Positions 5,746 to 50,558 of a stretch of 64,000 nt of DNA are shown piece by piece. The notes beneath the pieces are model-generated. The model ran no database searches. It worked only from the letters and a program-made list of their open reading frames with translations, and was not told the origin of the DNA. The DNA comes from Syntrophus sp. (in: bacteria) (GTDB lineage: Bacteria > Desulfobacterota > Syntrophia > Syntrophales > UBA8958), in contig JANXZC010000109.1 in assembly GCA_025355725.1 (NCBI GenBank), positions 38,340 through 102,339 of the forward strand, given 5' to 3'. The first letter of the stretch is position 1; each line of letters starts with the position of its first letter. Made by a program: the position numbers and the translations under genes.

Positions 5746-5775
5746 AAGCAGATCCTCCTTGCTTGAAATAATTAT

Positions 5776-5803: not shown

Positions 5804-5881
5804 GGGGTGGCGGGCGGGCAACATCCGAATATAATTATCCTGTTCAAGAAGAAAAGGCTATGTTCTCATATGCGATCTTGA

Positions 5882-6022: not shown

Positions 6023-6271
6023 TTTTTCAGGAGATTGAGGGCGTGAACAGCTTCCTGGATTCGATAAACTCCCCTTATTGTGTTTAAGCATGTCTTCCAA
6101 GTACAAAGCGTTGCTGCAAGCATCATAAACTGTTTATTGAATTGCGTGCGAAAGTAGTGAAAATATCACCCGACCAGAAGTGTATCGTGAAGAATACGGC
6201 GAAATTCGCATGCTTGAATAAAAGCCCAATGATAGCTTGATAATCAAGAATTAATCATGTAGATTGCTGGC

Positions 6272-6664: not shown

Positions 6665-6960
6665 TCTACGAAAAGATCAAAGAATACGTCAAGACCCTTG
6701 AAAAGAACAAGGTGCCGGTCTGGCGCTTATATTTGTACGGGTCTTATGCCAAAAATACATTTCATCCCGACAGCGATATTGACTTGGCCGTATTCTGGGA
6801 CCGGGACGATATTGACGGACTGGACGAGGACATCCAATTAAGAATGTTGAGCTGGGATATCGACCTACGGATTGAACCCCATTCTTTTGCTCGCACCGAC
6901 TTTGACGAAACGGATCCGTTTGTCAGTGAAATCATCGCAACCGGAGAGCGTATCCTGTAA
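6637..6960 (+). CDS. Minimal nucleotidyltransferase (MNT; Pol-beta superfamily)
   Basis: Canonical GS-X10-DxD motif: LYLYGSYAKNTFHPDSDIDLAVF. About 107 aa, paired with the HEPN gene. Confidence 0.85.
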   Translation: MAAGKDKQLIYEKIKEYVKTLEKNKVPVWRLYLYGSYAKNTFHPDSDIDLAVFWDRDDIDGLDEDIQLRMLSWDIDLRIEPHSFARTDFDETDPFVSEIIATGERIL

Positions 6961-7070
6961 TACAGCATTATTCTAAGTGAGCTGACGTTATATCGCGCCG
7001 AACCTGGGGAATCGCCTTATTCCGCCATGTGAGTGGCAAATAAGGTAATGACATCATGGCGGAAAGCTAA

Positions 7071-8774
7071 ATGAACCTACTATACTATGGCGATAACCTG
7101 GACGTAATGCGTCGACATATCAAAGATGAAACTGTTGACCTCGTTTATCTTGACCCGCCGTTCAACTCCAATACAAATTATAACGTCCTCTTTGCAGAAA
7201 AAGACGGGAGCAACGCAGCAAGCCAGATTCAGGCTTTCTCGGACACCTGGACTTGGAATCAGGAAAGCGAATCCGTCTTTGCGGAGATCGTGATGACAGG
7301 AGGTAAAGTTTCCGATTGCCTGCAAGCATTTAGGACTTTCCTCGGCGAATGCGACCTGCTGGCTTATCTCGTGATGATGGCCCCGCGTTTGTTGGAACTT
7401 CGCCGCGTGATGAAGCCTACCGCGAGCATTTATCTTCATTGCGACCCAACAGCAAGCCATTACCTGAAGATGCTCATGGACGCAGTTTTCGGAGCGGAGA
7501 ATTTTGTCAATGAAATCGTCTGGAAGCGGTCGGATGCGAAGGGAGATGCCGGACAGGGAGCCAAACACTATGGTCGAGTGAACGATTCTCTTCTGATGTT
7601 TTCAAAAAGGTGTGGAGATAATTTCTTCTCTCCGCAGTTCACCCCGCTTACCTCGGATTATATCGACAAGTGGTATAGACACACCGATCCGGACGGACGT
7701 CGATACAAACTGGATAATATGCTTGGACCTGGAGGGGCGGCCAAAGGAAACCCATATTACGAAGTCATGGGGGTGTCAAGACACTGGCGATATTCCAAAG
7801 CAAAGATGGATGAACTTATCCGCGTAGGGAGGGTAGTGCAGACAAGGCCTGGAACAGTGCCGATGTTTAAGCGCTACTTAGACGAAAGCAAGGGTGTACC
7901 GCTCACAAGTAACTGGACGGACATTCGCCCTATTCATGGGTGGGCTGCTGAAAAACTCGGTTATCCCACCCAGAAACCACAAATTTTACTTGAACGTATC
8001 ATTGAAGCCAGTAGCAGCCCCGGCGGCGTTGTACTTGACCCCTTCTGCGGCTGTGGGACCACGATTGCCGCCGCGCAAGCACTGAACCGTCCGTGGATAG
8101 GGATAGACATTACACACCTTGCGATAACCCTTATCAAGCAACGCATGAAGGATTCCTTCGGCGTAGAACAGAGTGTTCGCGCCACATCGTCGGGGAAAGG
8201 CGAAACGGCAAAGGTCGCGGAAACGGCAACAGAATATGGAAACGTTACAAAGCGGTCTTTCCATGTTTTGGGAGAGCCTACAAGTGAACCGGACGCGGCA
8301 GCTCTGGCGGCATCGGACCCCTATCAATTCCAATGGTGGGCGCTGGGTCTTGTAGGGGCTCGGCCCATCGAGCAAAAAAAAGGAGCAGACAAAGGGATTG
8401 ATGGGCAGATCATCTTCCAGGGGGACAAGAAAGGCACCTTTGAAAGTGTGATCCTGTCGGTTAAGGCGGGAAAAACCGGCTCCGCGCACATCCGTGATTT
8501 GAAGGGAGTTTTGGACCGGGAAAAAGCGGCAATCGGCATTCTGATCTCGATGGAGCACCCAACCAAACCGATGCTGACCGAGGCGGTTACGGCGGGATTC
8601 TACGAGTCCGCAACCTGGGGACAGAAATATCCGAAAATACAGCTCTTAACTGTGGCCGAACTGCTGGCTGGGAAGAAAGTTGAAATGCCCCCGATTAAAC
8701 AAGTGAGTGTGACATTTAAGACGGCTCCAAAGGAGACGAAGAAGAAAAGTGAACAACATGAATTGGATGTGTGA
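7071..8774 (+). CDS. Beta-class N6A/N4C DNA methyltransferase fused to a C-terminal Mrr/PD-(D/E)xK-like domain
   Basis: Motif IV DLVYLDPPFNS precedes motif I VLDPFCGCGTT, the beta-class order. The C-terminal ~170 aa (QFQWWALGLV...GADKGIDGQI...ILSVKAGK...AAIGILIS) resembles the Mrr_cat restriction-endonuclease fold. Confidence 0.88.
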   Translation: MNLLYYGDNLDVMRRHIKDETVDLVYLDPPFNSNTNYNVLFAEKDGSNAASQIQAFSDTWTWNQESESVFAEIVMTGGKVSDCLQAFRTFLGECDLLAYLVMMAPRLLELRRVMKPTASIYLHCDPTASHYLKMLMDAVFGAENFVNEIVWKRSDAKGDAGQGAKHYGRVNDSLLMFSKRCGDNFFSPQFTPLTSDYIDKWYRHTDPDGRRYKLDNMLGPGGAAKGNPYYEVMGVSRHWRYSKAKMDELIRVGRVVQTRPGTVPMFKRYLDESKGVPLTSNWTDIRPIHGWAAEKLGYPTQKPQILLERIIEASSSPGGVVLDPFCGCGTTIAAAQALNRPWIGIDITHLAITLIKQRMKDSFGVEQSVRATSSGKGETAKVAETATEYGNVTKRSFHVLGEPTSEPDAAALAASDPYQFQWWALGLVGARPIEQKKGADKGIDGQIIFQGDKKGTFESVILSVKAGKTGSAHIRDLKGVLDREKAAIGILISMEHPTKPMLTEAVTAGFYESATWGQKYPKIQLLTVAELLAGKKVEMPPIKQVSVTFKTAPKETKKKSEQHELDV

Positions 8775-9011
8775 TTAGGCCGATAAATGTCTGCTGTCTG
8801 GTCTTGATCCTTGCACCTTACCGCATCGCCAAGCCGGGACCAGGATGAGATCGCCCCACACCACCAGGGTCAAACGGAAAAAGGGGGGGGCGATCCTACT
8901 TATGACCCTGAAAAGTTTATGATCGCAGGTATGCTCACTATAATGATTTGCAATGTGGTTTTCATAAAAGGTATGTTTCCCCTGCGAAATCTGATGAATA
9001 TTCTTACCTTA

Positions 9012-9801
9012 TTATCCCTTCAGCTTGGCGTAGAGTCCCTTCAGCTTGGTGCGGTAGATGGTCCGGATCGCTTCCTCGTCCTCACCGATGGGTTTGAGGG
9101 GCACGAGATCCATGACCTCTGCGGGGGTCCGCTGTGACGCGAAGAGAGTCTTCACGGCCCCCTTGACCATCTTGGCCAGCGCGCTCTCGACCTCTTTGGC
9201 TGAAAGACCGAAGGACAGGCCGAGGGACTTCAGTTCTTCGATTTGAAACCAGAGATAGGTGGGGCCCATCGCCGTGAGGATGGCGTAGGCTTCCAGATTC
9301 TCTTCTTTGACATCCGGGCAGTCGCCAAGAATCTTAAAGAATTTCCTGAGATTTCTTTTCTCGTCGCCGGAGAAGGCCGGAGAAGGCCGGGGAAAAAGCC
9401 ACGGGGTTGTAGCCCCTGTTGACGACCGACGGGGCGTTGGGGATCATCCTGACGATTCGGTCGAAGCCACCCAGACCGGCGGACAGTTGGGCTATGGAGA
9501 GTTTGGGGGCCAGGGACACCACAACGGCGTCCTTTTTCAAATGCCCTTTAATGCCTTCCAAGCCGGCCATGACCGCCGGGGGATGGAGAGCGATAAAAAC
9601 TATCGCCGCCCCCGCGGGGTCTTTGACATCGCCGGCGCTCGTTTTGATCTTGGGAAAGCGGTCTGCCAATTTTGAGAGAACCTCGGAATTCGTATCGCTG
9701 ACAAATACGCGCTCCGGCCGTTTGTCCTTGCGATCCAACCCCTCCAGGATGATGCCGGTGACCCTGCCGCCGCCGATAAAGCCCAACGATTTGATCTTCA
9801 T
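9012..9801 (-). pseudogene. proC: Pyrroline-5-carboxylate reductase, frameshifted
   Basis: The N-terminal NADP domain (9334..9801, LGFIGGGRV) and the C-terminal dimerisation domain (9012..9269 plus open frame up to 9370, ...AYAILTAMGPTYLWFQIEEL) lie in different frames. They are separated by a 10-bp tandem duplication. Confidence 0.8.
9371..9390. repeat. 10-bp perfect tandem duplication (AGAAGGCCGG x2)
   Basis: Read directly from the sequence. Removing one copy joins both proC halves in frame (...AFSPAFSGDEKRNLRKFFKILGD...). Confidence 0.9.
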
Positions 9802-9844
9802 GAAGAACCTCCTTATGTTTTATTGGTTTTTCGTTTTTTCCCTC

Positions 9845-10171
9845 TTATGTAATGACTAATTTACCCAAAAAGGATTCCCGATAAAATAAACCGCCAGGAG
9901 CGTTATCATGACCCCCGCTCCTTTCCGGAACCAGTCGCCGGAGCGCCGCCTTGCCGGCATAGCGCTTCTCCAATTTTTGCAGAATCGGCGCCATCATCTT
10001 GCAGGGGATGCACCGGGTCGCCCCCAGGTCCACCATCGTCACCATCCCCTTCACAGGGACGGTCTTTGCCGGTTCACCGGCTGCGCCGGCGGCTGTGGCG
10101 ATTAAAAACAAAGCTGTCAACAGCAGGTACTTTAATTTTCTCTTCATTATATTCTTTAACTCCTTAATCAT
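9845..10171 (-). CDS. Secreted thioredoxin-like CxxC protein, C-terminally atypical (possibly truncated or decayed)
   Basis: Signal peptide, then VDLGATRCIPCKMMAPILQKLEKRYAGKAA (Trx WCxxC region). The last ~30 aa do not resemble the expected beta3-alpha3-cisPro region. Confidence 0.45.
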   Translation of the reverse strand: MIKELKNIMKRKLKYLLLTALFLIATAAGAAGEPAKTVPVKGMVTMVDLGATRCIPCKMMAPILQKLEKRYAGKAALRRLVPERSGGHDNAPGGLFYRESFLGKLVIT

Positions 10172-10318
10172 TGCCGGTCATCGCTGGTGATGCGACTATC
10201 TCCAAGGCAATGCGGGGCTGATTATCATTTTTATAGATCGCTGTAAAGTAATATTGAAAAAAGATCGGACACGAAGGCCGCAAGCTCCCTGAGATTGCCA
10301 CAGGGCCGCAATTCCTGT

Positions 10319-11533
10319 TTAATAAAGAAAGCCGAATAGCCACAGGGGTATTTTATTACCAAAGCCAGTTTCTATCTCATCGGCAGCAATGAAACTGTTG
10401 GTCATTTTACTGATTTGATCATAGGATTTGGATTTCCCGCCTATTTCAAAAGAGTAGAGCGATTTGACAAAAAAGTCTCCCCGCTCGGAAAGTTCAATGG
10501 TGGCATTGATCAGCGTGGGGTGGCTGGAAAAGGCGTTACGGATCTGGTTTACGAAAAAGAGTTCGCGTAACGTCCCTGCTGCCATTCCTTCGCCGATGGC
10601 ATACATCAGGTTGCCGTTTTCCAGATAGATTTTGTCCGGCTTGGTAAGAATCGCATAGCCTCTGCCCCGCTGCCTTAGTAAATTCAGCAGTTTGGCATCC
10701 TGGAGATGCTCAAGATACTCATAAAGCTTGGGACGCGATATCTCTGTTGCCTCTGCAAGCTTGACAATGTTGGGAACAAACGGCAGGCTTATGGCAAGCA
10801 TATAGAGGAGCTTCTTGATCTTGGCAATCTGTCGGATTTCGACCCCGCTGATATAGGGTAGATCCACCTCAAGGATGTGGTTGATAATCTCCCTGAGTTT
10901 GAAGTGGTAATGGGTTTCTCCTTCAAGGAAAAAGGGGTAATAACCGCTCTTGAGGTACTGCTTGAAATGACGCAGGATCTTCAGGTCCTTGCAGATATCT
11001 GTTGCCACGGCCTGGTGGTTCTCAAGAATCTCTTCGAGCGACAAGGGCGGGAATGCCGTATGCCTGGTAAAATTCAAATATTCCCGGAACGACAGCCCAT
11101 GGAGATGATAAATGACAGCCCGACGGCTAAGATCTCCCTTCTGTTGGGTAATCTTGAGCATGCTGGAACCTGTAAATACGATCTTCAGGCCGGGAATGGC
11201 ATCGTAGATCGACTTGATGTGAATGGACCAATCTGGGTACTTGTGGACTTCATCGACAAAAAGGACTTCCCCGCCGTGCTGGTGAAAAGTCCGGGCAAAT
11301 TCGAACAAGTCATGGGCCTGAAAGTAGGGACTGTCGATGGATATATAAAGAACCTTATCACTGCCCTTGAATTGCTCTTTGATCATCTGCAACATCAGCG
11401 TCGTTTTTCCCGTTCCCCGGGCGCCAAGAATTCCGACGCAGCGCAGATCCTGATCAATGGCTTCGTAGAGATAGCGTTTTTTGTTGCCGACTGCTTTTAT
11501 GAGCCGGCCCTGTTCTGTAAAAAATGTTTCCAT
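10319..11533 (-). CDS. AAA_14 ATPase with a C-terminal DUF4143 (PD-(D/E)xK-like) domain
   Basis: Walker A GARGTGKTT and Walker B LFVDEVHKYPDW. C-terminal ...ERGDFFVKSLYSFEIGGKSKS. Start reset to METFFTEQ at 11533. Confidence 0.8.
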   Translation of the reverse strand: METFFTEQGRLIKAVGNKKRYLYEAIDQDLRCVGILGARGTGKTTLMLQMIKEQFKGSDKVLYISIDSPYFQAHDLFEFARTFHQHGGEVLFVDEVHKYPDWSIHIKSIYDAIPGLKIVFTGSSMLKITQQKGDLSRRAVIYHLHGLSFREYLNFTRHTAFPPLSLEEILENHQAVATDICKDLKILRHFKQYLKSGYYPFFLEGETHYHFKLREIINHILEVDLPYISGVEIRQIAKIKKLLYMLAISLPFVPNIVKLAEATEISRPKLYEYLEHLQDAKLLNLLRQRGRGYAILTKPDKIYLENGNLMYAIGEGMAAGTLRELFFVNQIRNAFSSHPTLINATIELSERGDFFVKSLYSFEIGGKSKSYDQISKMTNSFIAADEIETGFGNKIPLWLFGFLY

Positions 11534-11547
11534 AGTCACCCCTAATA

Positions 11548-11598
11548 TGTAAACCTGCATTTACACTTTATGGGCATTATTGTAAACCTCAATTTACA
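11548..11598. promoter_or_regulatory. Two near-identical 18-bp palindromic boxes (candidate operators)
   Basis: TGTAAACCTGCATTTACA (11548..11565) and TGTAAACCTCAATTTACA (11581..11598), 33 bp centre to centre. They begin 15 nt upstream of the ATPase start. Confidence 0.5.
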
Positions 11599-21684: not shown

Positions 21685-21942
21685 CAATAAAGGCTCGGTC
21701 AAGATTCTAGTTTCCCTTCTTTTTATGAATAGAAGGAACATAAGCTATCATAGTCCTTTCAGTCATGCAAACAGGGATTCAACCATAAAGACAAAAACAT
21801 CTTGACTTTGTTTAATTTATTTGGCTTTTAGTGATCGAGACAAACGGTTTTATTTTCTGTCCAGGCAGTCTCAGAGCACAATTTTTTGTACGGTCGCCTC
21901 CCTGAGATGGGAAAAGGAATACCTGAACGGAGACTGACAAAG

Positions 21943-23196
21943 ATGGCTTCGGAAATCCGGCAAGTCGAAAAAAAGCAGCTCCGATTGTTTGAAAAGCTTA
22001 TCAGATCGGAACAGGAAAAATCCGTCATCCTCGATTCGATGACCGAACTTGTTTTATATCTGGACACGGATTTACGCGTTATCTGGGCAAACAAGGCCAT
22101 GCATGACGCCTTCCAGCTAACGACCGGTCAACTGAACAAAAAACACTGCTATCAAGCCCTCCACAACAGAAGCAAGGTATGCCGCGTCTGCCCGGCCGAA
22201 AAAACCCTCAAAACCGGGAAACCCCATGAAGTAGTGGATTTTTTGTCGTATAAGAAGAATTGGGTCCTCCGCAGTTACCCCGTCCGCAATGAAAAGGGAT
22301 CTCTAACCGGGATTGTAGAAATCGTCACCGACATAACGGAGCGCCGAAGGGCCGAAGAGGCATTGAGACAGTCGGAGCAGCAGTATCGCGAGCTCTTCGA
22401 AAATGCCAACGACATCATCTTTATTCTCGATTTCGACGGCAATATCCAGTCCGGCAACGCCGCCGCCGCAAAAACCTACGGCTACGAACCGGAGCAACTC
22501 CAAGGCCTGAACATGGCCGACCTCCTTCATCATGATGATCTTGACCTGGTCCGGGACCTTCTTCAGCAGAAGAGCGACGATGCCGAAATAAAGTCTCCTC
22601 AGGAATTCCGGACCCTTACAAAAGATGGCGAGACGGTATGGCTGGAAGTCAACACCAGGATCATGAAGGAAAACGGCAGAAACATATCCATTCACGGTAT
22701 TGCCCGGAACATCACGGAACGGAAAAGGATGGAAGAAGACCTGAAAAAAAGAGAAAGGGAACTATCTGAAAAATCAAGGAATCTTGAAGACGCAAACACC
22801 GCCCTTAAAGTTCTCCTCAAGCGTAGAGAAGAGGATAAGACGGAGCTGGAAGAAAAGGTGCTCTGCAACATGAGAGAGCTGATCCTGCCTCATGTTGATA
22901 ATCTGAAACTGTCATCCGTCGACAGCCGCCAATTGAATCAATTGACGATCCTCGAGGGTCACATCAATGAGATCATTTCGCCGTTCTTGCGCACCCTGTT
23001 CTCTAAATACCCCAACCTTACACCAATGGAAATCAAGATCGTAAATTTTATAAAAGAAGGACGAACAACAAAGGAAATCGCTGAACTGCTTCATATATCG
23101 GCCAGAACTATAGATGTGCACCGGGACAACATCAGGAAAAAAATTGGTTTGAGGAGCAGGAAAATCAATCTCCGTTCCTACCTGCTCTCCATATAG
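21943..23196 (+). CDS. PAS-PAS-coiled-coil LuxR/GerE-type transcriptional regulator
   Basis: Two PAS blocks (the first with a CRVCP Cys pair) and a C-terminal HTH TPMEIKIVNFIKEGRTTKEIAELLHISARTIDVHRDNIRKKIG. The start is ambiguous (21886 / 21907 / 21943). Confidence 0.82.
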   Translation: MASEIRQVEKKQLRLFEKLIRSEQEKSVILDSMTELVLYLDTDLRVIWANKAMHDAFQLTTGQLNKKHCYQALHNRSKVCRVCPAEKTLKTGKPHEVVDFLSYKKNWVLRSYPVRNEKGSLTGIVEIVTDITERRRAEEALRQSEQQYRELFENANDIIFILDFDGNIQSGNAAAAKTYGYEPEQLQGLNMADLLHHDDLDLVRDLLQQKSDDAEIKSPQEFRTLTKDGETVWLEVNTRIMKENGRNISIHGIARNITERKRMEEDLKKRERELSEKSRNLEDANTALKVLLKRREEDKTELEEKVLCNMRELILPHVDNLKLSSVDSRQLNQLTILEGHINEIISPFLRTLFSKYPNLTPMEIKIVNFIKEGRTTKEIAELLHISARTIDVHRDNIRKKIGLRSRKINLRSYLLSI

Positions 23197-23233: not shown

Positions 23234-23258
23234 AATTTACGTATACCATACGTAAATT
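23234..23258. promoter_or_regulatory. Perfect 11-bp inverted repeat (candidate operator)
   Basis: AATTTACGTAT-acc-ATACGTAAATT. It lies 38 bp after the LuxR-type gene and 120 bp before the next operon. Confidence 0.45.
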
Positions 23259-23376
23259 TTCAGTATTGCATTTTAGTGAAATCAGTGGTTGCATCCTTTG
23301 AAAATATAGAATGTGTGTAGTGTTTTCAGGGGGGCCAATATCGTTTTTAACCAATCATAACTAAGGAGGGGAAATT

Positions 23377-23916
23377 ATGACGCGTGAGGAAAAAATCGAG
23401 GAAATCCGCCAACGTGCCCGGAAGAATTTTTCTTTGGGTTATAATTGCGCGGAATGTGTCACCGAGGCAGTCTTGAGTCTGGTGGATACGGGGTTGCCTC
23501 CCGAAGTAAAGAAAGTGGCGACGGGATTCGGCGGCGGCATCGGGCTTTTCGGGGATACATGCGGCGCCCTTGCCGGTGCGGTTTTAGCTGTTGGCGCCGT
23601 ACACGGCAGAAGCAGTCTTCCCGAAGGCGAAGGGAAGGAAGCAGCCATGAAATCAAAGGAACAGCTGTACGGGAAACCTGGTCTTTACCGGCTGTTCAAC
23701 ATCATCCCCAATCGGATTAACGAGAAGTACGGCAAGACGCTATGTCGTGATTTCACTGCCCAGTGGCAGTCCAGTTGGCTTTGCCGCGATCATGCTATCT
23801 TCTGTCGCGAACTCATCACCGATGCCGCCGGCATAGCGGCCGAACTTGTTCTATCCGATAAGGAAGAAATTGCTTCGAGGCCTTTTGCAAAGAATGTCGA
23901 AAATCTGAAAGACTGA
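23377..23916 (+). CDS. C_GCAxxG_C_C family redox protein
   Basis: GYNCAECV and GGGIGLFGDTCGALAGAVLAVG motifs, with a GGAGGGG SD. Confidence 0.85.
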   Translation: MTREEKIEEIRQRARKNFSLGYNCAECVTEAVLSLVDTGLPPEVKKVATGFGGGIGLFGDTCGALAGAVLAVGAVHGRSSLPEGEGKEAAMKSKEQLYGKPGLYRLFNIIPNRINEKYGKTLCRDFTAQWQSSWLCRDHAIFCRELITDAAGIAAELVLSDKEEIASRPFAKNVENLKD

Positions 23917-23933
23917 TAAAGGGAGGCATTAAC

Positions 23934-25268
23934 ATGAGTCAAAAGATGGTCGTCATCGGCGGCGGGGCGGCGGGCCCTTCCACGGCGGCGGAAGCCAAGC
24001 GGAGAAATAAATCTCTCGATGTCACCATGATCGAGGGAGGAGATTTTGTGTCCTATGCCGCCTGACCGATGCCCTATTACATCGGCGATGTAATCAAAGA
24101 CTACAAAAAACTGGTAATCCGCACACCCGAAGATTTCCAGAAAAACGGCATCAATGTAAAGATCAAAACACGCGTGGAAGGTATCGATTCCAAAAAAGGT
24201 CTTGTCCGCCTGTCCGATGATTCCAGTCTCCCCTTCGATATCCTCGTTATGGCTACCGGCGCCGACGCTGTCCGTCTGGACATCCCGGGGGCAGATTTGG
24301 ACGGGGTCTTCGTACTCAGAAACCTGATGGACGCCCTCCGCCTCAAATCCTACCTGAACGAGAAAGAATGTGGCAAAGCGGTTATTATCGGCGGCGGCTA
24401 CATCGGGATGGAGATGTGCGAGGCCATGAAAAATATTGGAATCCAGACAAAGGTCCTCGATATGCTGCCCCGTCCTGTTATCCGCTGGGACTCCGAATTT
24501 ACCAAGATGATCGTGGATGAGTTGGGGAAAAATGATGTGCCGTTTCTGCCGGAAACAAGGCCCCTCGCAATTGAAAAGGGAACAAAAAGCCGCCTCACCC
24601 TGAAGACGGACAAGGGTGATCTGGATGCCGACGTGATTTTAATGGGAGTGGGCACCCGTCGTAGTGTGGCCCTGGCTAAGGCTGCAGGGTTAGAAATGGG
24701 AGAAAGCGGGGCCATCAAGGTTGATTTCCGGCAGCAGACATCCCGCGAGGGGATCTATGCCGTCGGCGACTGCTGTGAGGTCTTTCATCGGGTGACCAAG
24801 CGCTGGGTCTATTTTCCCCTGGGAGACGTCGCCAACAAACAGGGCCGCGTCGCCGGTCAGAATATCGGCGGATACCCAACGGAATTTCCCGGCATTGTCG
24901 GCGCCCAATCCTTCAAAGTCTTCAATCTCGAGGTAGGTGCCACGGGGCTTACGGAGGAAGAGGCGATAACATACGGCTTTCAACCTGTTAGCGCCATGAT
25001 TTGGGGACTTCCCATCGGTCGGCCCATGGCAAAGGGGGAAAAGCTGGGGGTGAAACTGGTTGCCGACAAGGTTACGGGGAAGCTTCTTGGCGGCCAGTGC
25101 ATCGGGGAAAAAGGGGCTATCCAGCGGATCTTCGCTCTGTCAGTCGCCCTATGGTCGGGACTGGGCATCGACGAAGTGGGTTACCTGGACCTTCCCTACG
25201 CCCCGCCCTTCGGCGGCGCTTGGGATGCCATCCACGTGGCGGCTCAGGAACTTATGAAAAAAATGTAG
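23934..25268 (+). CDS. CoA-disulfide reductase/NADH oxidase-family flavoprotein; predicted selenoprotein (UGA at 24063..24065)
   Basis: The ATG at 23934 follows GGGAGG. The N-terminus MVVIGGGAAGPS (FAD GxGxxG) continues in frame through TGA into ORF 24069..25268. The TGA falls at the catalytic Cys position (VSYAA-U-PMPYYIG). Confidence 0.72.
24076..24094 (+). promoter_or_regulatory. Candidate bacterial SECIS hairpin
   Basis: ATTACATC-GGC-GATGTAAT starts 10 nt after the UGA. An alternative pairing is CCGATG (24066..24071) with CATCGG (24080..24085). Confidence 0.5.
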
Positions 25269-25286: not shown

Positions 25287-25613
25287 TTGTCGTTAACAGC
25301 TAATGAACGGGGTGTGGAGATCATTGCCGTCAGTATCGACGGTAAGGCATGGGGAACCTATGAGGGCCTTGCCGGGACATTTGCCGGCTTTGCCGATTCC
25401 TGTCTCCGCCATAAAACACTTCCGGGATTTTATAGAACGGACCTTACCGTGGAAGCAGAATTGAAGGGACGACGTCTGCATCTGGTTCTGCCGGGAAAGC
25501 GAACGTCGGCGGAACTGATGGAGATCCTGGATACGGCCTTACTTAACATAGTTGCCTTTCCCTGCAAAGAGGGGGAGGCGGAGTGTTTTATAGAAGTCAA
25601 ATCTGGAAATTGA
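25287..25613 (+). CDS. Hypothetical protein (TTG start)
   Basis: GGAGG 7 nt before the TTG. Tightly packed between the flavoprotein and abfD-like genes. No recognisable motif. Confidence 0.45.
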   Translation: MSLTANERGVEIIAVSIDGKAWGTYEGLAGTFAGFADSCLRHKTLPGFYRTDLTVEAELKGRRLHLVLPGKRTSAELMEILDTALLNIVAFPCKEGEAECFIEVKSGN

Positions 25614-25634: not shown

Positions 25635-27086
25635 ATGGCTTTAAAAACGGCAAAGGAGTATCTGGACAGCATCAAGAAGATGAAACCCCGCGTTTATATC
25701 GGCGGGAAATGGGTAACGAACCTGCTGGGAAATCCCGTGACCAAATCCATGGTCATGGCCAACTCCGCCATTTACGGCCTGGCGGAAGATCCGGCCCATA
25801 AAGAAGTCATGGTGGCAACATCCCATCTGACGGGGGAACCGGTTAACCGCAACCTCAATGTCGCCCGGAACATCCACGACCTGGATATGCGCCAGGAGAT
25901 GGCCCTCCTGACCAGCCAGACCGTGGGTACCTGCAACTATCGCTGTGTCGGCTGCGACGCCCTCAACAGTCTGGCCTCCACGACCTGGGAGATGGACCAG
26001 ACCCTGGGGACGAAATACAATGAGAGATTCAACAAGTGGCTCGCTTACGCCCAGGCGAACGACCTGGCCGTCTCCGGCGCCATCACCGACGCCAAAGGGG
26101 ACCGGAAGAAGAGACCGTCTCAGCAAGATGAAATCGACACCTTCGTCCACTTAGTCGAGAAGCGCGACGACGGGATTGTGGTCCGGGGGATCAAGGTCAG
26201 CCAGAGCGGCGCCATCGGCTCCCATGAAACCCTGGTCCTTCCCGGCGGGTCGCTAAAAGAGGGAGAAGAAAAGTTCGCTCTCGCCTTTGCCGTCCAGAAC
26301 AGCGTGCCGGGTCTGTCCTACATCTGCCAGTACAACGCCTTATCGGCGGAGCGGGACTCTTGCGACAATGAAGACGAACTTGGGAACCCACTCTACGGTC
26401 AGCGGGAGACCTCGACGATGTATTTTGATAATGTCTTCATTCCCTGGGAGCGGGTTTTCCTTTGCGGTGAAACCAAATTTTGCGGAAAAATGGTAACCCG
26501 GTTTGCCAAGGCCCACCGGATGAACTGCGGCGGGGCCTGCAAGGTGGGATTCGCCGACCTGATCATCGGCGGCACCATGATGGCGGCGGAATATATCGGC
26601 GTGGAGAAGATCCCCCATATCCAGGAGAAGATCATCGACATGGTCCGTTACAGTGAGACATCCCATGCCTGCGCGATTGCCGCGGCCATGCGGGGCCGGG
26701 AGGAACCCAAGGGATCGGGAGTCTTCCTGCCCGATGATCTTTTCGGCAATGCGGCCAAGCTCAATATCGCCCACGGCTTCTGGGAGATCATCAAGAACGC
26801 CGGCGATATCGGCGGCGGACTGGTGGTAACCGCCCCGAGGCTGAAGGACCTGGAGGACCCGGAGGTAGGTCCCGTGCTGAAGAAGGCCTTCGGGGCAGCG
26901 GCGCCGGCGGACAAGCGCATGAAGGTAGCCAAGTTCCTCCAGCACTGGACGGCGGGACTCCATGGAGTGGGGACGTGGCACGGCGCCGGGGCGCCCCAGG
27001 GCCAGCGGTTTATGTTTACCGTCCTGACAGATTTCGAGGCCAAGAAGAAGATGGCCAAAAAACTTATGGGCATGAAAGAAGAATAA
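25635..27086 (+). CDS. abfD: 4-hydroxybutyryl-CoA dehydratase/vinylacetyl-CoA isomerase-like (HpaB superfamily)
   Basis: Alignable by eye to C. aminobutyricum AbfD, including [4Fe-4S] ligand positions CNYRC (CxxxC) and HRMNCGGAC. Confidence 0.8.
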   Translation: MALKTAKEYLDSIKKMKPRVYIGGKWVTNLLGNPVTKSMVMANSAIYGLAEDPAHKEVMVATSHLTGEPVNRNLNVARNIHDLDMRQEMALLTSQTVGTCNYRCVGCDALNSLASTTWEMDQTLGTKYNERFNKWLAYAQANDLAVSGAITDAKGDRKKRPSQQDEIDTFVHLVEKRDDGIVVRGIKVSQSGAIGSHETLVLPGGSLKEGEEKFALAFAVQNSVPGLSYICQYNALSAERDSCDNEDELGNPLYGQRETSTMYFDNVFIPWERVFLCGETKFCGKMVTRFAKAHRMNCGGACKVGFADLIIGGTMMAAEYIGVEKIPHIQEKIIDMVRYSETSHACAIAAAMRGREEPKGSGVFLPDDLFGNAAKLNIAHGFWEIIKNAGDIGGGLVVTAPRLKDLEDPEVGPVLKKAFGAAAPADKRMKVAKFLQHWTAGLHGVGTWHGAGAPQGQRFMFTVLTDFEAKKKMAKKLMGMKEE

Positions 27087-27119
27087 ATAAAATCCTGTCC
27101 GAATAGCGCTTTTTTCATT

Positions 27120-27147
27120 ATTCCCCTCCAAGGTATCGGAGGGGAAT
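27120..27147 (+). terminator. 10-bp GC-rich hairpin after the abfD-like gene (no U-tract)
   Basis: ATTCCCCTCC-aaggtatc-GGAGGGGAAT. There is no T-run on either side, so terminator function is uncertain. Confidence 0.3.
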
Positions 27148-27480
27148 AGTTGATTCCTGATCTGCAATCATCACCCTTCCCGTCCTTTTTTCCTTGACAA
27201 GCTGTCTGTTTCGTAATACCAAGAAGTACGGTGTGGAAGAGCGCCTTATGGATTTAATCATAGACGATTGTCTGGATAATTCGGCGTTTTCTGTTAAACA
27301 CGCTCTTTTTTTGATTCATTTACTCACCTGCAACTTGCTCATGGCAACGGGATACTTCTCGGGTACAACGCTCATGGACGGGTATCATAAAGTATTATGA
27401 TCTTCAGGATGTTGGTAAGGTTTTATGATCAGTTATTTTAAAGGTTTCATGAAACATTTTTAAAAAGGAGGGTGTAGCGT

Positions 27481-29169
27481 ATGTACTTTGCAGCGGAAGT
27501 GCTGGCAAGCTCCAGCACGCTCAAACAGAAGTGGGAGGACGAGGTTCGCAAGAGCGTCGCCAAGGTCGCCGATCAGAAACCGGAAAAGCTCTGGTCAACT
27601 GTATCCGACCTCCAGATTAAACGTCTTTATGGTCCCGATGACATCAAAGACATGGATTTTGAAAGGGACATCAGCTATCCTGGCCAGTTCCCCTACCTGC
27701 GGGGCAATCAGCCCACTGGTTACCGGGGTAAATACTGGACCTACCGGATGTTCTCCGGCATGGGAGACGCCAAGACGACCAACGAACGTTGGCACATGCT
27801 CCTCAAGGAGGGGCAGACGGGTCTCAGCACGGCCTTCGATTTTCCAACATTGATGGGTTATGACTCCGACTGTCCCAAAGCAAGGGGGGAGTGCGGAAAG
27901 TGCGGTGTCGCCATCGATACCCTGGAAGACTTCATGCAGTTGGTGGAAGGCATCCCCATGGACAAGGTTACCACGTCCATGACCATCAACCCGCCGGCAA
28001 CGGCCCTCTGGGCCATGTACTGCGCCGCCGCAGAGATCAGGGGCATCCCCCTGACCAAGATCGGCGGGACAATCCAGAATGACATGCTCAAGGAATTCAT
28101 CGCCCAGAAGACCCTGATGTGTCCCCCCGATCCTTCGGTCAAGCTGATCAGCGACACCGTGGAATTCGGAACCAAGTACGTTCCCCGCTGGAACACCATC
28201 AGCATCAGCGGTTATCATATCCGGGAAGCCGGAGCGACGGCCGTTCAGGAACTGGCCTTTACCCTGCGGGACGGCATGGAATACGTCGAAGACGTCATCC
28301 GCCGCAAGGGACTGGAAGTTGATGAATTCGCTCCCCGGCTCTCCTTCTTCTTCAACTCCCATATCGACTTCTTCGAAGAGATCGCCAAGCTGCGGGCCGC
28401 CCGCCGGATCTGGGCAAAAGCGATGCGGGATCGTTACAAGGCCAAAGATCAGCGGTCCTGGTGGATGAGGTTCCATACCCAGACAGCCGGGTGTTCCCTC
28501 ACAGCGCAGCAGCCCTACAACAACGTTGTCCGGACGGCCACGGAGGCCCTGGCGGCGGTGCTCGGCGGGACCCAGTCCCTCCATACGAATTCCCTTGATG
28601 AAGTCCTCTGTCTGCCCTCGGATCATGCGGTGCAGATCGCACTCCGGACCCAGCAAATTATCGCTGAGGAAACAGGGGCCGCCAACACCATCGATCCCCT
28701 GGCGGGTTCCTATTTCGTCGAGGCCCTGACCAATGAGATGGAAGAGAAGGCCTGGGAATATATCCACAAGATCGACGAAATGGGCGGCATGGTCGCAGCC
28801 ATTGAAAAGGGATTCCCCCAGCTCGAAATCTCCGACGCCGCTTATCTGTATCAGCGACAGGTCGATGCCAGTGAAAAGATCATGATCGGCGTCAACAAGT
28901 ACGTTACCGAGGAAAAGATCCCCATTCCCCTGATCGAGATCGACGATGCAGTGGAAACCGCGCAGGTCGCACGTTTGCAGGCCGTCAAAAGGAAACGCGA
29001 CGGCAAGGCCGTCAAGAAAGCCCTCGACGATATCAAGAGTGCCTGCAAGAAGGGCGATAATGTCATGCCCTACTGCATCGAAGCCGTAAAGAGCCTGGCA
29101 TCCGTCCAGGAAATCTGTGATGTCTATCGCGAAGTTTACGGCGAATACCGGGATCCGGGATTGTACTAA
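27481..29169 (+). CDS. B12-dependent acyl-CoA mutase large (substrate-binding) subunit, isobutyryl-CoA-mutase-like
   Basis: 562 aa with ...WTYRMFSGMG...GLSTAFDFPTLMGYDSD...LKEFIAQK.... Phe91 and Gln209 occupy the positions that are Tyr/Arg in methylmalonyl-CoA mutase. Confidence 0.85.
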   Translation: MYFAAEVLASSSTLKQKWEDEVRKSVAKVADQKPEKLWSTVSDLQIKRLYGPDDIKDMDFERDISYPGQFPYLRGNQPTGYRGKYWTYRMFSGMGDAKTTNERWHMLLKEGQTGLSTAFDFPTLMGYDSDCPKARGECGKCGVAIDTLEDFMQLVEGIPMDKVTTSMTINPPATALWAMYCAAAEIRGIPLTKIGGTIQNDMLKEFIAQKTLMCPPDPSVKLISDTVEFGTKYVPRWNTISISGYHIREAGATAVQELAFTLRDGMEYVEDVIRRKGLEVDEFAPRLSFFFNSHIDFFEEIAKLRAARRIWAKAMRDRYKAKDQRSWWMRFHTQTAGCSLTAQQPYNNVVRTATEALAAVLGGTQSLHTNSLDEVLCLPSDHAVQIALRTQQIIAEETGAANTIDPLAGSYFVEALTNEMEEKAWEYIHKIDEMGGMVAAIEKGFPQLEISDAAYLYQRQVDASEKIMIGVNKYVTEEKIPIPLIEIDDAVETAQVARLQAVKRKRDGKAVKKALDDIKSACKKGDNVMPYCIEAVKSLASVQEICDVYREVYGEYRDPGLY

Positions 29170-29197
29170 GATAACGACTTGAGGAGGGAATTTCGAT

Positions 29198-29602
29198 ATG
29201 TCAGATAAAAAGATTCGTGTAATGGTTGCGAAACCGGGCCTCGATGGTCATGATCGTGGCGCCAGGGTTCTGGCCCGCTGTTTCCGTGACGCAGGATTTG
29301 AAGTTATTTACACCGGTTGTCACCAGACGCCGGAGCAGATCGCCTCTGCGGCGATTCAGGAAGACGTGGACGTAGTGGGATTGAGCTGCCTTTCCGGAGC
29401 CCATCGGTATCTGTTCCCCGCCGTCGCCAAACTGCTGAAGGAGCAGGGGGCCGATGATATTACCGTCGTCGGCGGCGGCATTATTCCTGAGCAGGATTTC
29501 CAGTTGCTTTATGACGCTGGTCTCAAGGCCATCTTTATACCCGGCGCCAAACTGGACAGTATTGTTGACTGGTTCAAAACAAACGTGCACCCAAGGGCTT
29601 GA
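29198..29602 (+). CDS. Acyl-CoA mutase small subunit (B12-binding domain)
   Basis: DxHxxG motif in [23 protein letters not shown]; 134 aa. Confidence 0.88.
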
Positions 29603-29606
29603 TATC

Positions 29607-30581
29607 ATGGAACGTGTAAAAAGAATCCAGGCGGGAGACGTAAGAACGGCTTCCCGTCTTATCAGAAATCTCGAAGATGGGATGGTTGAAGCAAGATCTA
29701 CCATCAAGCATATTTTCCCTCTGACCGGCAAGGCTAATGTCCTTGGAATTACCGGCTCTCCGGGGGCGGGAAAAAGCACCCTCGTGGACGGCCTGGTGGA
29801 ATCCTTCCGCAAGAAGGATAAAACCGTGGGCGTCCTGGCCGTGGATCCTACCAGCCCCTTCACCGGCGGGGCCATCCTGGGAGACCGGATCCGCATGCAG
29901 CGCCATGCCGAAGATCCGGGCGTCTTTGTCCGGAGCTTGGCAACGCGGGGGGCTCTGGGCGGTCTATCCAGGGCGGTCGGCGACGCCATTCATATCATGG
30001 ATGTTATGGGGAAGGATATGATCATCGTCGAGACCGTCGGCACGGGCCAGCAGGAGGTGGATATCATCAACCACTCCCATACGGTCATCGTGGTCCTGAT
30101 TCCGGGAATGGGCGACGAGATCCAGGCCATCAAGGCCGGGATTATGGAAATCGCCGACATTTTCGTGATCAACAAGGCGGATCGGGAAGGGTCATCCAAG
30201 CTGCGGCGGGAGATCATGGCCATGCTCGACATGGCGCCGCCGACGGCCTTCGCGGCGGGCTGGCGTCCACCCATCATCAGGGTGGAAAACGCCTTCGAGC
30301 CGGAAGGATTTAATAAGAGTCTCGAAGAGTTGACAACCACCATTGAAAGCCATTACCAGCATCTGGTAAAGCACGACCTCATCGGTTCCCGAATCCGCCG
30401 GAAGGCCGTCATGGAGCTTAATGAGGCGATCCGGACATGTATTCTGGAACCAGTGCTGAATCGGCTCATATCCGATGGTGAAACCGAGGCGATGATCGAG
30501 AAGCTGATCAACAAGCAGAGCGATCCCTACACCCTCGCCGAGGACGTAGCGAGACGGTATCTCAAGGACCTCAACTTATAA
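29607..30581 (+). CDS. meaB: MeaB/ArgK-type G-protein chaperone for B12 mutases
   Basis: GSPGAGKST P-loop, VETVGTGQ and NKADR. Start set at MERVKRIQAGD. Confidence 0.88.
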   Translation: MERVKRIQAGDVRTASRLIRNLEDGMVEARSTIKHIFPLTGKANVLGITGSPGAGKSTLVDGLVESFRKKDKTVGVLAVDPTSPFTGGAILGDRIRMQRHAEDPGVFVRSLATRGALGGLSRAVGDAIHIMDVMGKDMIIVETVGTGQQEVDIINHSHTVIVVLIPGMGDEIQAIKAGIMEIADIFVINKADREGSSKLRREIMAMLDMAPPTAFAAGWRPPIIRVENAFEPEGFNKSLEELTTTIESHYQHLVKHDLIGSRIRRKAVMELNEAIRTCILEPVLNRLISDGETEAMIEKLINKQSDPYTLAEDVARRYLKDLNL

Positions 30582-30600
30582 CCTTTAACGTGTTGATAGA

Positions 30601-30631
30601 GAAGCCCGGGATGGCAAACATCCCGGGCTTC
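30601..30631 (+). terminator. 11-bp stem hairpin after meaB (weak U-tract)
   Basis: GAAGCCCGGGA-tggcaaaca-TCCCGGGCTTC followed by tgatctt. Confidence 0.45.
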
Positions 30632-30653
30632 TGATCTTGGCGACTCGTTCTCG

Positions 30654-31268
30654 ATGATTTTCGAATTTGTTGGCAATATTGTCAATATCTCACAGGAGGA
30701 TAAGACGGCGTTGACAGACAATCTTATTGAAGAGACCCTGGCCAAGTTCAATCGCGGCGTTGTCATGGTTGTCACGGGCAACGGCAAGGGAAAGACGACC
30801 GCCGCTATCGGCCAGGCCCTCCGGGCGCTCGGTCATGGAAAGAAGGTCTTCATGATCCAGTTCATGAAGGGCAAGAAATACGGCGAGGTGCTTGCCGCCG
30901 AGAAATATCTTCCCGATTTCACGATCCGTCAGAGTGGCCTGGACAGTTTCGTCATGCGGGACAATCCCGCTCCCATCGATATCGAACTGGCTAAAGAGGG
31001 ATTCAAGATGGCCGGGCAGGCCATTTCTTCCGGGGAATATGATCTCGTCATCCTCGAGGAGATAAATGTGGCCCTGGATTTCAAACTGCTGCTCCTCCCG
31101 GAAGTCATCGATATGATCAACAACAAACCGGCGACGGTAGATTTGATCCTCACAGGGCGATACGCCCCCCAGGAGATTATCGATCTTGCCGATACGGTCA
31201 GCGACATTCAGGAGATCAGGCATCACTATACCAAGGGGATCAAGGAACGCGCCGGCATGGAGTACTGA
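30654..31268 (+). CDS. cobO: Cob(I)yrinic acid a,c-diamide adenosyltransferase (CobO/BtuR type)
   Basis: VVTGNGKGKTTAAIGQALRALGHGKKVFMIQFMKG. The start may lie further downstream. Confidence 0.82.
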   Translation: MIFEFVGNIVNISQEDKTALTDNLIEETLAKFNRGVVMVVTGNGKGKTTAAIGQALRALGHGKKVFMIQFMKGKKYGEVLAAEKYLPDFTIRQSGLDSFVMRDNPAPIDIELAKEGFKMAGQAISSGEYDLVILEEINVALDFKLLLLPEVIDMINNKPATVDLILTGRYAPQEIIDLADTVSDIQEIRHHYTKGIKERAGMEY

Positions 31269-46114: not shown

Positions 46115-48369
<2,255 letters not shown>

Positions 48370-50555: not shown

Positions 50556-50558
50556 TCC

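Follow-up and report, generated by a model that had tools for sequence, protein, structure and literature searches.

A predicted selenocysteine codon followed by a conserved hairpin in a mis-annotated clade of CoADR/NADH-oxidase-type flavoproteins

Does an in-frame TGA on a Syntrophus sp. contig end a very short gene, or does it encode the catalytic residue of a longer one? The codon lies in a stretch of 64,000 nucleotides (contig JANXZC010000109.1), which we analysed as a whole and refer to as the window. The initial annotation, made from the letters alone, had proposed a CoADR/Nox-like flavoprotein with selenocysteine (Sec) at the catalytic position, truncated by ORF calling. The elements that it named (Shine–Dalgarno (SD) sequence, ATG, TGA, downstream ORF and hairpin) are all present in the sequence at the positions that it gave. 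The features of the gene itself are as follows.

23921..23926, + strand: Shine–Dalgarno sequence GGGAGG, 7 nt 5′ of ATG 23934, read from the sequence
23934..25268, + strand: predicted complete selenoprotein CDS of 444 codons, one of them UGA (Sec44), then TAG 25266-25268
23958..23975, + strand: FAD-binding GxGxxG (GGGAAG, residues 9-14); Pfam FAD/Rossmann models match residues 4-41
24063..24065, + strand: in-frame UGA in the catalytic Cys column, predicted Sec44, placed by alignment with PDB entries and 444-aa homologues
24390..24407, + strand: NAD(P)H-binding GxGxxG (GGGYIG, residues 153-158); PF00070 matches residues 148-222

Translation from ATG 23934 to TAG 25266-25268 gives a frame that is broken once only, by TGA 24063-24065, and the ORF at 24069..25268 shares this frame. 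The 43 codons before the UGA encode MSQKMVVIGGGAAGPSTAAEAKRRNKSLDVTMIEGGDFVSYAA, and the product of reading through has the 444 aa that had been predicted for it. Three metagenome assemblies made independently from this organism all carry the TGA, which excludes an assembly error. The sequence occurs in DNA metagenome runs only, and no RNA-seq run was found to contain it.

The read-through product matches CoADR/Nox profiles and solved structures from end to end. Pfam places the FAD, NAD and dimerisation domains in order (PF07992 at residues 4-285, PF00070 at 148-222 and PF02852 at 326-429), and residues 4-437 are collinear with positions 2-440 of the 444 positions of NCBIfam NF007123. The best structural matches were PDB 6ruz (E=4e-85, residues 1-439) and 4fx9 (E=4e-71, collinear with the read-through product), and the PDB alignments overall reach residues 1-440. 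The closest solved relatives are thus the Thermus thermophilus NADH oxidase (6ruz), for which a literature search found no accompanying paper, and the Pyrococcus horikoshii CoA-disulfide reductase (4fx9 and 3kd9). They share with the window protein both GxGxxG motifs, the dimerisation domain and the catalytic column, but they use Cys at that column, where the window protein is predicted to use Sec. The redox motif S-(F/Y)-x-x-C-x-x-P-Y is satisfied by VSYAA-U-PMPYY with the predicted Sec in the Cys column. That the UGA falls exactly on the catalytic Cys had been claimed from known motifs; it aligns with the catalytic Cys of 6ruz (VSYGAC-GLPY), 4fx9 (VSHAPC-GIPY) and 3kd9, and with that of the 444-aa homologues (VSYAAC-PMPYY). 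Scores fell below the CoADR equivalog cutoffs of NF007123 (368.5 vs 458), TIGR03385 (358.5 vs 578.8) and NF010037 (192.3 vs 394), and far below that of the H2O-forming NADH oxidase model NF046103 (231.3 vs 600); we therefore do not file the protein as a CoADR sensu stricto, and no substrate is assignable from these models. Judged from its sequence, 23934-25268 is very probably a single gene for an FAD- and NAD(P)H-dependent oxidoreductase of the CoADR/NADH-oxidase/peroxidase group with Sec at residue 44.

To see how the catalytic column behaves among relatives, we collected homologous genes from species-level genomes. Alignment with the Cys-containing homologues confirmed the Cys/Sec column that had been foreseen, with Cys in 11 relatives against TGA in 146 distinct genes, mostly from Syntrophales, although these loci are phylogenetically related and the counts overstate their independence. 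The gene is also present in complete genomes, among them OY764159.1, OY970063.1, OY821638.1 and CP070735.1. Eight of the homologues are 444 aa long, are 71-79% identical to the window protein and have Cys at column 44. When related loci were found by peptide patterns elsewhere in the protein, 54 of 57 had TGA at the column; these 54 Sec loci, chosen away from the UGA, formed our unbiased set. The TGA is shared over an identity range of ~35-95% among the 146 genes, and Cys forms sit singly, dispersed within the Sec clade, in a neighbour-joining (NJ) tree. At 50% identity the clade clusters by itself, and it is at most 48% identical to anything else. Two N-terminally short neighbours at 45-48% identity (P0122 and P0124) might be further Sec forms. 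The residue that follows Sec is P, E, D, S or L across the 146 genes and never Gly: it is Pro in the clade, and Glu, Asp, Ser or Leu in distant members.

These alignments bear directly on the possibility that the UGA is a true stop, which would leave either a pseudogene or a 43-aa peptide followed by a 399-aa protein with ATG 24069 as its start. Public gene callers make this very split, as the initial annotation had suspected, ATG 24069 lies one codon past the stop, and among the stops of the window TGA is the most frequent. The 399-aa product would, however, have neither the FAD GxGxxG, since GGGAAG lies only in the 43-aa piece, nor the catalytic residue, and inspection of the sequence before ATG 24069 found no purine-rich SD or GGGAGG-like motif; the lack of an FAD motif and an SD in this ORF had been pointed out at the outset. 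Thr, Ile or Leu takes the place of the Met encoded by ATG 24069 in 5 of the 54 loci, which consequently have no start codon there. On both sides of the UGA, amino acids are conserved and synonymous sites are free across the 54 loci, and an identical TGA column in 146 genes with purifying selection to either side is incompatible with a pseudogene. Copies that are damaged look different, with a deletion in locus L050 and a frameshift in locus L036. The collinear profiles and the two-sided selection likewise speak against the N-terminal 43 aa being a separate gene. We consider termination at this codon exceedingly unlikely.

Downstream of the UGA lies the second element of the prediction.

24076..24094, + strand: SECIS-like hairpin A, stem 24076-24083 / 24087-24094 (perfect 8 bp), loop GGC 24084-24086

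Hairpin A, AUUACAUC-GGC-GAUGUAAU, starts 10 nt after the UGA, with 18 nt from UGA to loop, and selection acts on it at the RNA level. The stem codons TAT, TAC, ATC, GAT and GTA have zero synonymous entropy among the 54 Sec loci, compared with H=1.12 for the GGN of the loop and H of 0.5-2.3 for flanking degenerate codons. The stem is invariant across loci apart from G-U-compatible changes in Sec forms (TAC>TGC in L027, L030 and L031; GAT>GGT in L014), and shows no compensatory double changes; GGA is rare in the loop (0/54 loci, 4/146 genes). In Cys forms the stem decays, and four of the seven compared carry synonymous changes at stem codons; none of the 53 Sec forms does (Fisher p=7e-5). This is a natural example of an RNA element that freezes synonymous sites, fixes the peptide YYIGDV and decays after Sec-to-Cys replacement. 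The association also holds in the opposite direction: of the 118 readable occurrences of the exact 19-nt hairpin in species-level genomes, 114 lie 12 nt downstream of an in-frame TGA.

We also asked how often such a hairpin arises by chance. The window contains 27 perfect 8-bp hairpins with loops of 3-8 nt, against ~7 in Markov-1 simulations, and the probability that one falls within a 6-nt range of placements behind a given codon is ~0.003, which alone is suggestive but not decisive. It is the absence of synonymous variation in the stem and the 114/118 linkage to TGA, across genomes, that make the hairpin more than chance. Many of the 27 hairpins in the window resemble terminators.

The initial annotation had called this hairpin SECIS-like, and the element that it picked is the conserved one. 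The bacterial SECIS (bSECIS) criteria, as summarised in PMC13188914, are a loop of 3-9 nt, an upper stem of 4-16 bp, 16-37 nt from UGA to loop and a G within the first two loop positions. With its 3-nt GGN loop, 8-bp stem and 18-nt spacing, hairpin A agrees with all four as they appear in that summary. Its energy alone is −5.7 kcal/mol (−5.1 to −6.0 across the 54 loci), weaker than the heuristic threshold of −7.5 given there. That value was obtained with other software and on another region, so it serves to filter searches and is not something that the biology demands; enforced together with its flanks, hairpin A reaches −6.6 to −7.6 kcal/mol. Like bacterial SECIS elements of the E. coli fdhF/fdnG type (the Zhang & Gladyshev 2005 model, as relayed in PMC13188914), it lies within the coding region just 3′ of the UGA. 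It differs from them in being very short and AU-rich at −5.7 kcal/mol, with no lower stem or bulged U, in having an unusually invariant sequence across distant genomes, and in competing with a more stable hairpin.

24066..24085, + strand: hairpin B, CCGAUG 24066-24071 / CAUCGG 24080-24085, 8-nt loop, the minimum-free-energy structure (MFE) in free RNA

ViennaRNA gave −8.0 kcal/mol for hairpin B against −5.7 for A, and A was the weaker in 43 of 54 loci. We considered B as the functional element and rejected it. Its 5′ arm varies (the Pro wobble position in 11/54 loci, the Met codon in 5/54), it accounts for only two of the five frozen synonymous sites, and it fails on loop G and on spacing. With the 12 nt directly 3′ of the UGA occluded, hairpin A forms with a pair probability of 0.77-0.99. 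Rfam, which has no curated model for this element, returned no match, either in a gathering-threshold scan of the whole window or in a scan of 23900-24250 at E<=10.

In some systems, downstream hairpins stimulate stop-codon read-through, so the UGA might be read without dedicated machinery, by near-cognate suppression with tRNA-Trp or tRNA-Cys helped by the hairpin, or because UGA has been reassigned. Reassignment is opposed by the window itself, in which UGA ends 18 of the 36 well-supported genes, as it does in the standard code. Trp at the catalytic Cys position would inactivate the enzyme, and position, loop G and spacing agree with the SelB-type bSECIS model in the form summarised in PMC13188914. 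We give read-through of this kind next to no probability. Insertion of Sec under the direction of hairpin A is the reading that we carry forward.

Could the organism insert Sec? We found no selA, selB, selC or selD in the 64-kb window and no tRNA of any kind there. In 187 records covering 1.34 Mb of carrier-genome flanks, ARAGORN found no tRNA-Sec, and tblastn with the E. coli proteins found no SelA, SelB or SelD; for the machinery of this organism we therefore go by order-level relatives only. Among these, Syntrophus aciditrophicus has 19 selenoproteins including SelD according to a published survey, and a composite Smithella genome has selA, selB, selC and selD (PMC5389517). A Sec/Cys-pair screen of the fetched DNA for other selenoprotein genes returned only off-frame artefacts and ordinary stops. 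Two further TGA splits in the window (25287-25613/25635 and 45917-46816/45410) were set aside, as they seem coincidental or belong to no family.

The same relatives raise the question of whether the UGA is recoded as Cys, by a selC* tRNA-Cys(UCA) with a selB* factor that recognises the hairpin, constitutively or as a low-selenium back-up. selC* and then selB* were found in Syntrophobacterales, Desulfobacterales and the composite Smithella (Mukai et al. 2017, PMC5389517), taxa that overlap the carriers of our gene; selC* tRNA-Cys(UCA) put Cys at a Sec UGA in E. coli (PMC5389517); and the system has been posited to make Cys versions of selenoproteins when selenium is scarce (PMC9437257). Cys is also functionally acceptable at position 44, given at least six natural Cys replacements. 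The selC*/selB*(/cysS*) system of delta-proteobacteria thus resembles our case in its taxa, its UGA codons and its SelB-like factor that needs an mRNA element, but it inserts Cys where the window gene is predicted to take Sec. The selC* genomes, however, all had complete Sec machinery, so that Sec insertion stays the default (PMC5389517), and many selC* tRNAs carry a GCA rather than a UCA anticodon. A TGY codon would give Cys with no machinery at all, yet TGA has been kept in 146 genes, and Sec forms of the UGxP type carry the same hairpin in Firmicutes metagenome-assembled genomes (MAGs), where selB* has not been reported. Neither selC* nor selB* appeared in the fetched flanks of carrier genomes. 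Recoding as Cys is, on balance, unlikely.

Hairpin A hardly varies over at least 146 genes, which fall into three paralogous or contextual subclades and into several phyla. One bolder reading, to which we attach very little probability, is that this 19-nt sequence is an element dedicated to selB* and that the flavoprotein is the first natural selC* target, with Cys or a switchable Sec/Cys at the column. In a milder version, the peptide YYIGDVI could be intrinsically hairpin-encoding, predisposing the family to repeated Cys-to-Sec conversions. Our preferred reading remains Sec at residue 44.

How does this gene relate to known selenoproteins? The statement in the initial annotation that Nox-like proteins feature in selenoproteome surveys was correct: CoADR/NADH oxidase flavoproteins are listed there as a selenoprotein family (PMC9312934, PMC13188914, PMC1794560). 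Catalogues have included the family since 2004, with WP_011365774.1 of Geobacter metallireducens as prototype, under COG0446 / TIGR03385 / PRK09564 and with the motif UGxP; earlier surveys recorded it in one genome (Geobacter) and did not list it for Syntrophus. The window gene is therefore another member of a known family. It has in common with the Geobacter prototype the fold family, the best-scoring profiles, Sec (predicted in the window gene) at the catalytic Cys position and the Pro at +3, but its motif is U-P-M-P, with Pro instead of Gly at +1, the UGxP motif being a descriptor drawn from few sequences. The UGxP-type Sec forms in Firmicutes MAGs (L190, L192 and L193) have the same hairpin in the same place and the same downstream peptide, which links the UPxP and UGxP types.

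What is new is the extent of the clade and the state of its annotation. A family once recorded in a single Geobacter genome is now a large radiation in at least 146 species-level genomes, and nearly every public gene copy is mis-annotated. The family had been described at the outset as known but rarely annotated, and this description was borne out: public copies are mostly truncated, and the 399-aa form makes up 112 of the 120 best database hits, under the names ‘FAD-dependent oxidoreductase’ or ‘sulfur reductase-like enzyme’. Since these entries have neither the FAD site nor the catalytic residue, a complete redox enzyme is absent from metabolic reconstructions of organisms that degrade fatty acids and benzoate syntrophically.

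We know of no biochemically characterised Sec-containing CoADR/Nox enzyme, and the following model is a proposal. Translation would begin at ATG 23934 behind the strong SD. While the UGA occupies the A site, the ~12 nt directly 3′ of it would lie inside the mRNA channel; occlusion of these 12 nt would keep hairpin B from forming, and hairpin A with its GGN loop could fold where the message enters the channel. SelB loaded with Sec-tRNA(Sec) would then bind the hairpin at 24076-24094 and deliver Sec. In the finished enzyme, a selenolate beside the FAD may cycle through Se-OH or a Se-S mixed selenosulfide, and NAD(P)H would drive the reduction of a disulfide, persulfide or peroxide substrate.

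The neighbourhood of the gene offers a candidate for the other side of this reaction.

21886..23196, + strand: PAS-PAS-LuxR(GerE) regulator (Pfam), upstream of the gene pair
23377..23916, + strand: C-GCAxxG-C-C family redox protein, all Cys (PF09719), candidate partner of the flavoprotein
25287..25613, + strand: 108-aa ORF directly downstream, no Pfam or NCBIfam match
25635..27086, + strand: HpaB/4-hydroxybutyryl-CoA dehydratase-like gene (PF11794, PF03241), downstream

The product of 23377..23916 scores 57.4 against a cutoff of 47.4 for TIGR01909, ‘C-GCAxxG-C-C family (seleno)protein’. Neither the window copy nor any of 67 orthologues has a Sec codon. The gene lies directly upstream of the flavoprotein in 65 of 67 close orthologous loci, and in this Syntrophales-rich clade its product might serve as partner or substrate. 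The PAS-PAS-LuxR(GerE) regulator is upstream in 43 of 116 loci, all of them within the close-orthologue group. Downstream, the 108-aa ORF is kept in 41 of 64 close orthologous loci and the HpaB-like gene in 36 of 55. Across the radiation as a whole, the flavoprotein gene is found in two conserved contexts, beside the C-GCAxxG-C-C redox protein and behind trxB-lgt.

The initial annotation had proposed an in-frame UGA at the catalytic position of a CoADR/Nox-like flavoprotein. On re-reading the sequence, we found its Shine–Dalgarno (SD) sequence, start codon, TGA, frame, 444-amino-acid product and hairpin coordinates all as claimed:

23921-23926, + strand: SD sequence GGGAGG, 7 nt 5′ of ATG 23934, read from the sequence
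23934-25268, + strand: read-through CDS, in one frame via ATG 24069 to TAG 25266-25268; 444 aa
23958-23975, + strand: FAD-binding motif GGGAAG, within the 43-codon N-terminal segment
24063-24065, + strand: in-frame TGA, after 43 codons from ATG 23934
24076-24094, + strand: hairpin A, a perfect 8-bp inverted repeat AUUACAUC-GGC-GAUGUAAU, 10 nt 3′ of the UGA

Sequence inspection revealed no purine-rich SD ahead of ATG 24069, as had been stated for the downstream ORF, and public gene callers do truncate the product, giving pieces of 43 and 399 aa. TGA is the stop of 18 of the 36 well-supported genes in the window, and the genetic code is thus standard. Judged from sequence comparison, 23934-25268 is almost certainly a selenoprotein gene of a catalogued family.

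We queried profiles and structures with the 444-aa product, substituting Cys or X at the UGA. Pfam domains Pyr_redox_2, Pyr_redox and Pyr_redox_dim were found in that order, and residues 4-437 matched positions 2-440 of 444 in NF007123 (NCBIfam CoA-disulfide reductase). Alignments to solved structures were collinear and spanned residues 1 to about 440, led by Thermus NADH oxidase 6ruz (E=4e-85) and Pyrococcus CoADR 4fx9/3kd9. The 6ruz and 4fx9 alignments place the catalytic Cys in the UGA column (VSYGAC-GLPY, VSHAPC-GIPY), bearing out the claim that the UGA falls on this residue. Scores remained under the curated cutoffs for the CoADR equivalogs (368.5 versus 458; 358.5 versus 578.8) and for H2O-forming Nox (231 versus 600), and we therefore place the predicted protein in the CoADR/Nox/Npx group without giving a substrate. 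Truncated 399-aa entries made up 112 of the 120 best protein-search matches; a few others had 444 aa, and all of these align with Cys at column 44.

A DNA search of one genome per species, using peptide patterns distant from the UGA, returned 58 loci, nearly all from Syntrophales MAGs, with TGA exactly at column 44 in 54 and TGC in three. Codon comparison showed that amino acids are kept both 5′ and 3′ of the UGA while synonymous positions change freely, which indicates that both parts are translated in one frame. In 5 of the 54 loci a codon for Thr, Ile or Leu replaces the Met codon that follows the UGA, which leaves a separate 399-aa gene no start codon at this point. Together with the collinear profiles, these observations speak against the N-terminal 43 aa being a separate gene; a pseudogene or split gene is effectively excluded, as is UGA read-through without dedicated machinery, both being contradicted by the conservation pattern across loci. 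Two loci are damaged, and each may be either a true pseudogene or an artefact of long-read assembly: a deletion directly after the TGA, with loss of frame and hairpin (L050, 3130-3200), and a frameshift within the N-terminal segment (L036, ~3060-3130).

Our full collection comprises at least 146 distinct genes of the Sec form and 11 of the Cys form. Sec-form carriers include Syntrophales, Smithellaceae, Syntrophobacteraceae, Desulfarculaceae, Desulfobacteraceae and some Acidobacteriota MAGs; in the Acidobacteriota bins (L068, L076, L080) the hairpin is identical, which suggests horizontal transfer of gene and SECIS, or mis-binning. Two MAGs each hold two Sec paralogues, both with identical hairpin (L017 and L137 in binchicken_co20_342; L032 and L039 in POMEDNA-B44). 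Among 1.84 billion cluster representatives searched, the window's clade forms one 50%-identity cluster, itself represented by a truncated 399-aa entry, and nothing outside it exceeds 48% identity. The nearest out-cluster relatives (P0122 and P0124, 45-48% identity) open with Met or Val near query residue 75 and may be additional Sec forms cut back to a later start codon.

The published bSECIS model (PMC13188914) calls for a loop of 3-9 nt with the pattern G[G|U]N, a stem of 4-16 bp, 16-37 nt from UGA to loop and an MFE of -7.5 or lower. Hairpin A has a 3-nt loop, an 8-bp stem and a UGA-to-loop distance of 18 nt, all within range. [quoted passage not shown] Alone, hairpin A stays at -5.7, short of the threshold of -7.5, which was set with a different program and region. 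The MFE fold of 24063-24110 (ViennaRNA) is a competing hairpin B, CCGAUG/CAUCGG, that starts right at the UGA and is the more stable (-8.0 versus -5.7 kcal/mol for A; 43 of 54 loci). When we mimicked a ribosome with the UGA in its A site by folding without the 12 nt that directly follow the UGA, pair probabilities of A rose from ~0 in free RNA to 0.77-0.99. In this model, the 5′ arm of B would lie inside the ribosome, and A could then fold at the mRNA entrance.

Perfect 8-bp hairpins number 27 in the window, against ~7 expected from composition; a single one is therefore not rare, and the weight of evidence rests on the comparative results. Across 54 distinct loci, the five degenerate codons of stem A (TAT, TAC, ATC, GAT and GTA) have zero synonymous entropy, marking 24076-24094 as the conserved hairpin, while the loop codon GGN and every neighbouring degenerate codon vary. 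We rejected hairpin B as the functional element: it accounts for two of the five frozen sites, its own 5′ arm is variable, and it fails on loop G and spacing. Stem A changes in Sec forms are only non-synonymous, with pairing kept through G-U (L014, L027, L030, L031). Synonymous changes at the frozen codons occur in four of seven Cys forms (L055, L062, L063, L066) versus none of 53 Sec forms (Fisher p=7e-5), and stem A pairs are broken in two of the Cys-form relatives. The Cys forms sit singly inside a Sec-dominated clade (NJ tree), which suggests that Sec is ancestral and was replaced by Cys at least six times, leaving decaying SECIS remnants. Such decay after Sec-to-Cys replacement has been described for other families (Zhang et al. 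2006).

We looked for exact copies of the 19-nt hairpin in every species genome and obtained at least 120, 118 of them readable; among the matches listed, 114 of the 118 have an in-frame TGA 12 nt 5′ of the hairpin, within this flavoprotein gene. The other four are Cys forms, unrelated and without UGA, with the peptide CGLPYYIGDVI, from Flavisolibacter, Eubacteriaceae and Oscillospiraceae MAGs (L071, L093, L108, L175). The peptide YYIGDVI is intrinsically hairpin-encoding, and the hairpin in these Cys types could be chance codon choice or a remnant of former Sec forms.

The statement in the initial annotation that surveys had listed Nox-like selenoproteins proved correct. A published catalogue gives COG0446/TIGR03385, motif UGxP and prototype WP_011365774.1, crediting Kryukov & Gladyshev 2004; in Zhang et al. 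2006 the family occurs in a single genome, Geobacter metallireducens, and Syntrophus aciditrophicus is listed with 19 selenoproteins including SelD, without a Sec CoADR/Nox-like flavoprotein; the GOS survey has one sequence. Sec is followed by P, E, D, S or L, and by G in none of our 146 collected genes. Four genuine UGxP-type Sec forms came from a last genome scan for U-G-x-P-Y-Y-I-G-D-V, all in Firmicutes MAGs. In L190, L192 and L193 essentially the window hairpin recurs at the same place, which connects the predicted UPxP clade with the published family; in L189 a different hairpin, of 9 bp, lies further downstream (segment energy -16.4 kcal/mol). New here are a large clade that public databases do not annotate and the scale of mis-annotation; we add strong natural SECIS evidence controlled by Cys forms, the finding of a competing hairpin, two conserved genomic contexts and a candidate link to selC*/selB*.

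That link concerns what is inserted. Mukai et al. 2017 (PMC5389517) described selC*, a tRNA-Sec-like tRNA-Cys, followed by selB*, a second SelB paralogue, in Syntrophobacterales and Desulfobacterales; some selC* have a UCA anticodon, and the pair may insert Cys at UGA. Its taxonomic range overlaps the carriers of our gene, and among the rivals to Sec it alone is a serious one. Exclusive recoding as Cys is nevertheless unlikely, since retaining a TGA with a hairpin just to obtain Cys has no evident benefit compared with using TGY, and the Sec machinery is present alongside: Mukai et al. state that all selC*-containing genomes, including a composite Smithella genome, have complete selA, selB, selC and selD. 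These genomes and S. aciditrophicus lend indirect support to a putative Sec machinery in the window's organism. The 64-kb window holds no tRNA or sel genes, and 1.34 Mb of carrier-genome flanks gave no tRNA-Sec, SelA, SelB or SelD homologues and, in a Sec/Cys screen, no other selenoproteins.

Selenocysteine remains our reading of the UGA, and the gene's neighbours are:

23377-23916, + strand: TIGR01909 'C-GCAxxG-C-C family (seleno)protein', a family with Sec members
25287-25613, + strand: 108-aa ORF directly downstream, without Pfam/NCBIfam match, kept in 41/64 close loci

In 65 of 67 close orthologous loci (≥65% identity) the gene immediately upstream encodes a C-GCAxxG-C-C protein, and this adjacency suggests that it and the flavoprotein form a functional pair; the window copy and its 67 orthologues are all-Cys. 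Close orthologues are often also near a PAS-LuxR regulator, the 108-aa ORF and an HpaB/AbfD-like gene. A second Sec subclade (50-65% identity) has a context unlike that of the window's clade, behind trxB-lgt in 46-48 of 59 loci (immediately 3′ in, for example, L142 1449-3291, L047 and L041); there, thioredoxin reductase is TIGR01292 (369.8 versus cutoff 343) and lgt is TIGR00544. Just after the window's PAS-LuxR gene, a nested perfect inverted repeat (23235-23260; ≥8-bp stems from 23235-23237) is probably its terminator. The TGA stop of the 108-aa ORF (25611) is in frame with the next gene, 25635-27086, and looks coincidental because the Pfam match of that gene begins at residue 5. It opens a run of acyl-CoA metabolism genes (25635-31268, +) 3′ of the flavoprotein gene:

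25635-27086, + strand: HpaB/4-hydroxybutyryl-CoA dehydratase-like gene
27481-29169, + strand: methylmalonyl-CoA-mutase-family large subunit
29198-29602, + strand: B12-binding subunit
29454-30581, + strand: MeaB GTPase ORF as listed
30654-31268, + strand: corrinoid adenosyltransferase CobO

The true MeaB start is probably further downstream than 29454, given the 149-nt overlap with the B12-binding ORF. Elsewhere in the window lie an ATP synthase cluster of unusual gene order (46951-53773, +), its beta-first arrangement being typical of N-type (Na+) ATPase operons and not of standard F-type ones, and a region (4981-11560) that looks like a mobile or defence island:

46951-48369, + strand: ATP synthase beta-type subunit, first in the cluster, followed by several small ORFs
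51304-52905, + strand: ATP synthase alpha subunit
52802-53773, + strand: ATP synthase gamma subunit
4981-5796: ParB-like protein, in the putative island
7071-8774: DNA methylase fused to an Mrr/NA-iREase-like endonuclease domain, in the putative island
10319-11560: AAA_14/STAND-like ATPase, in the putative island
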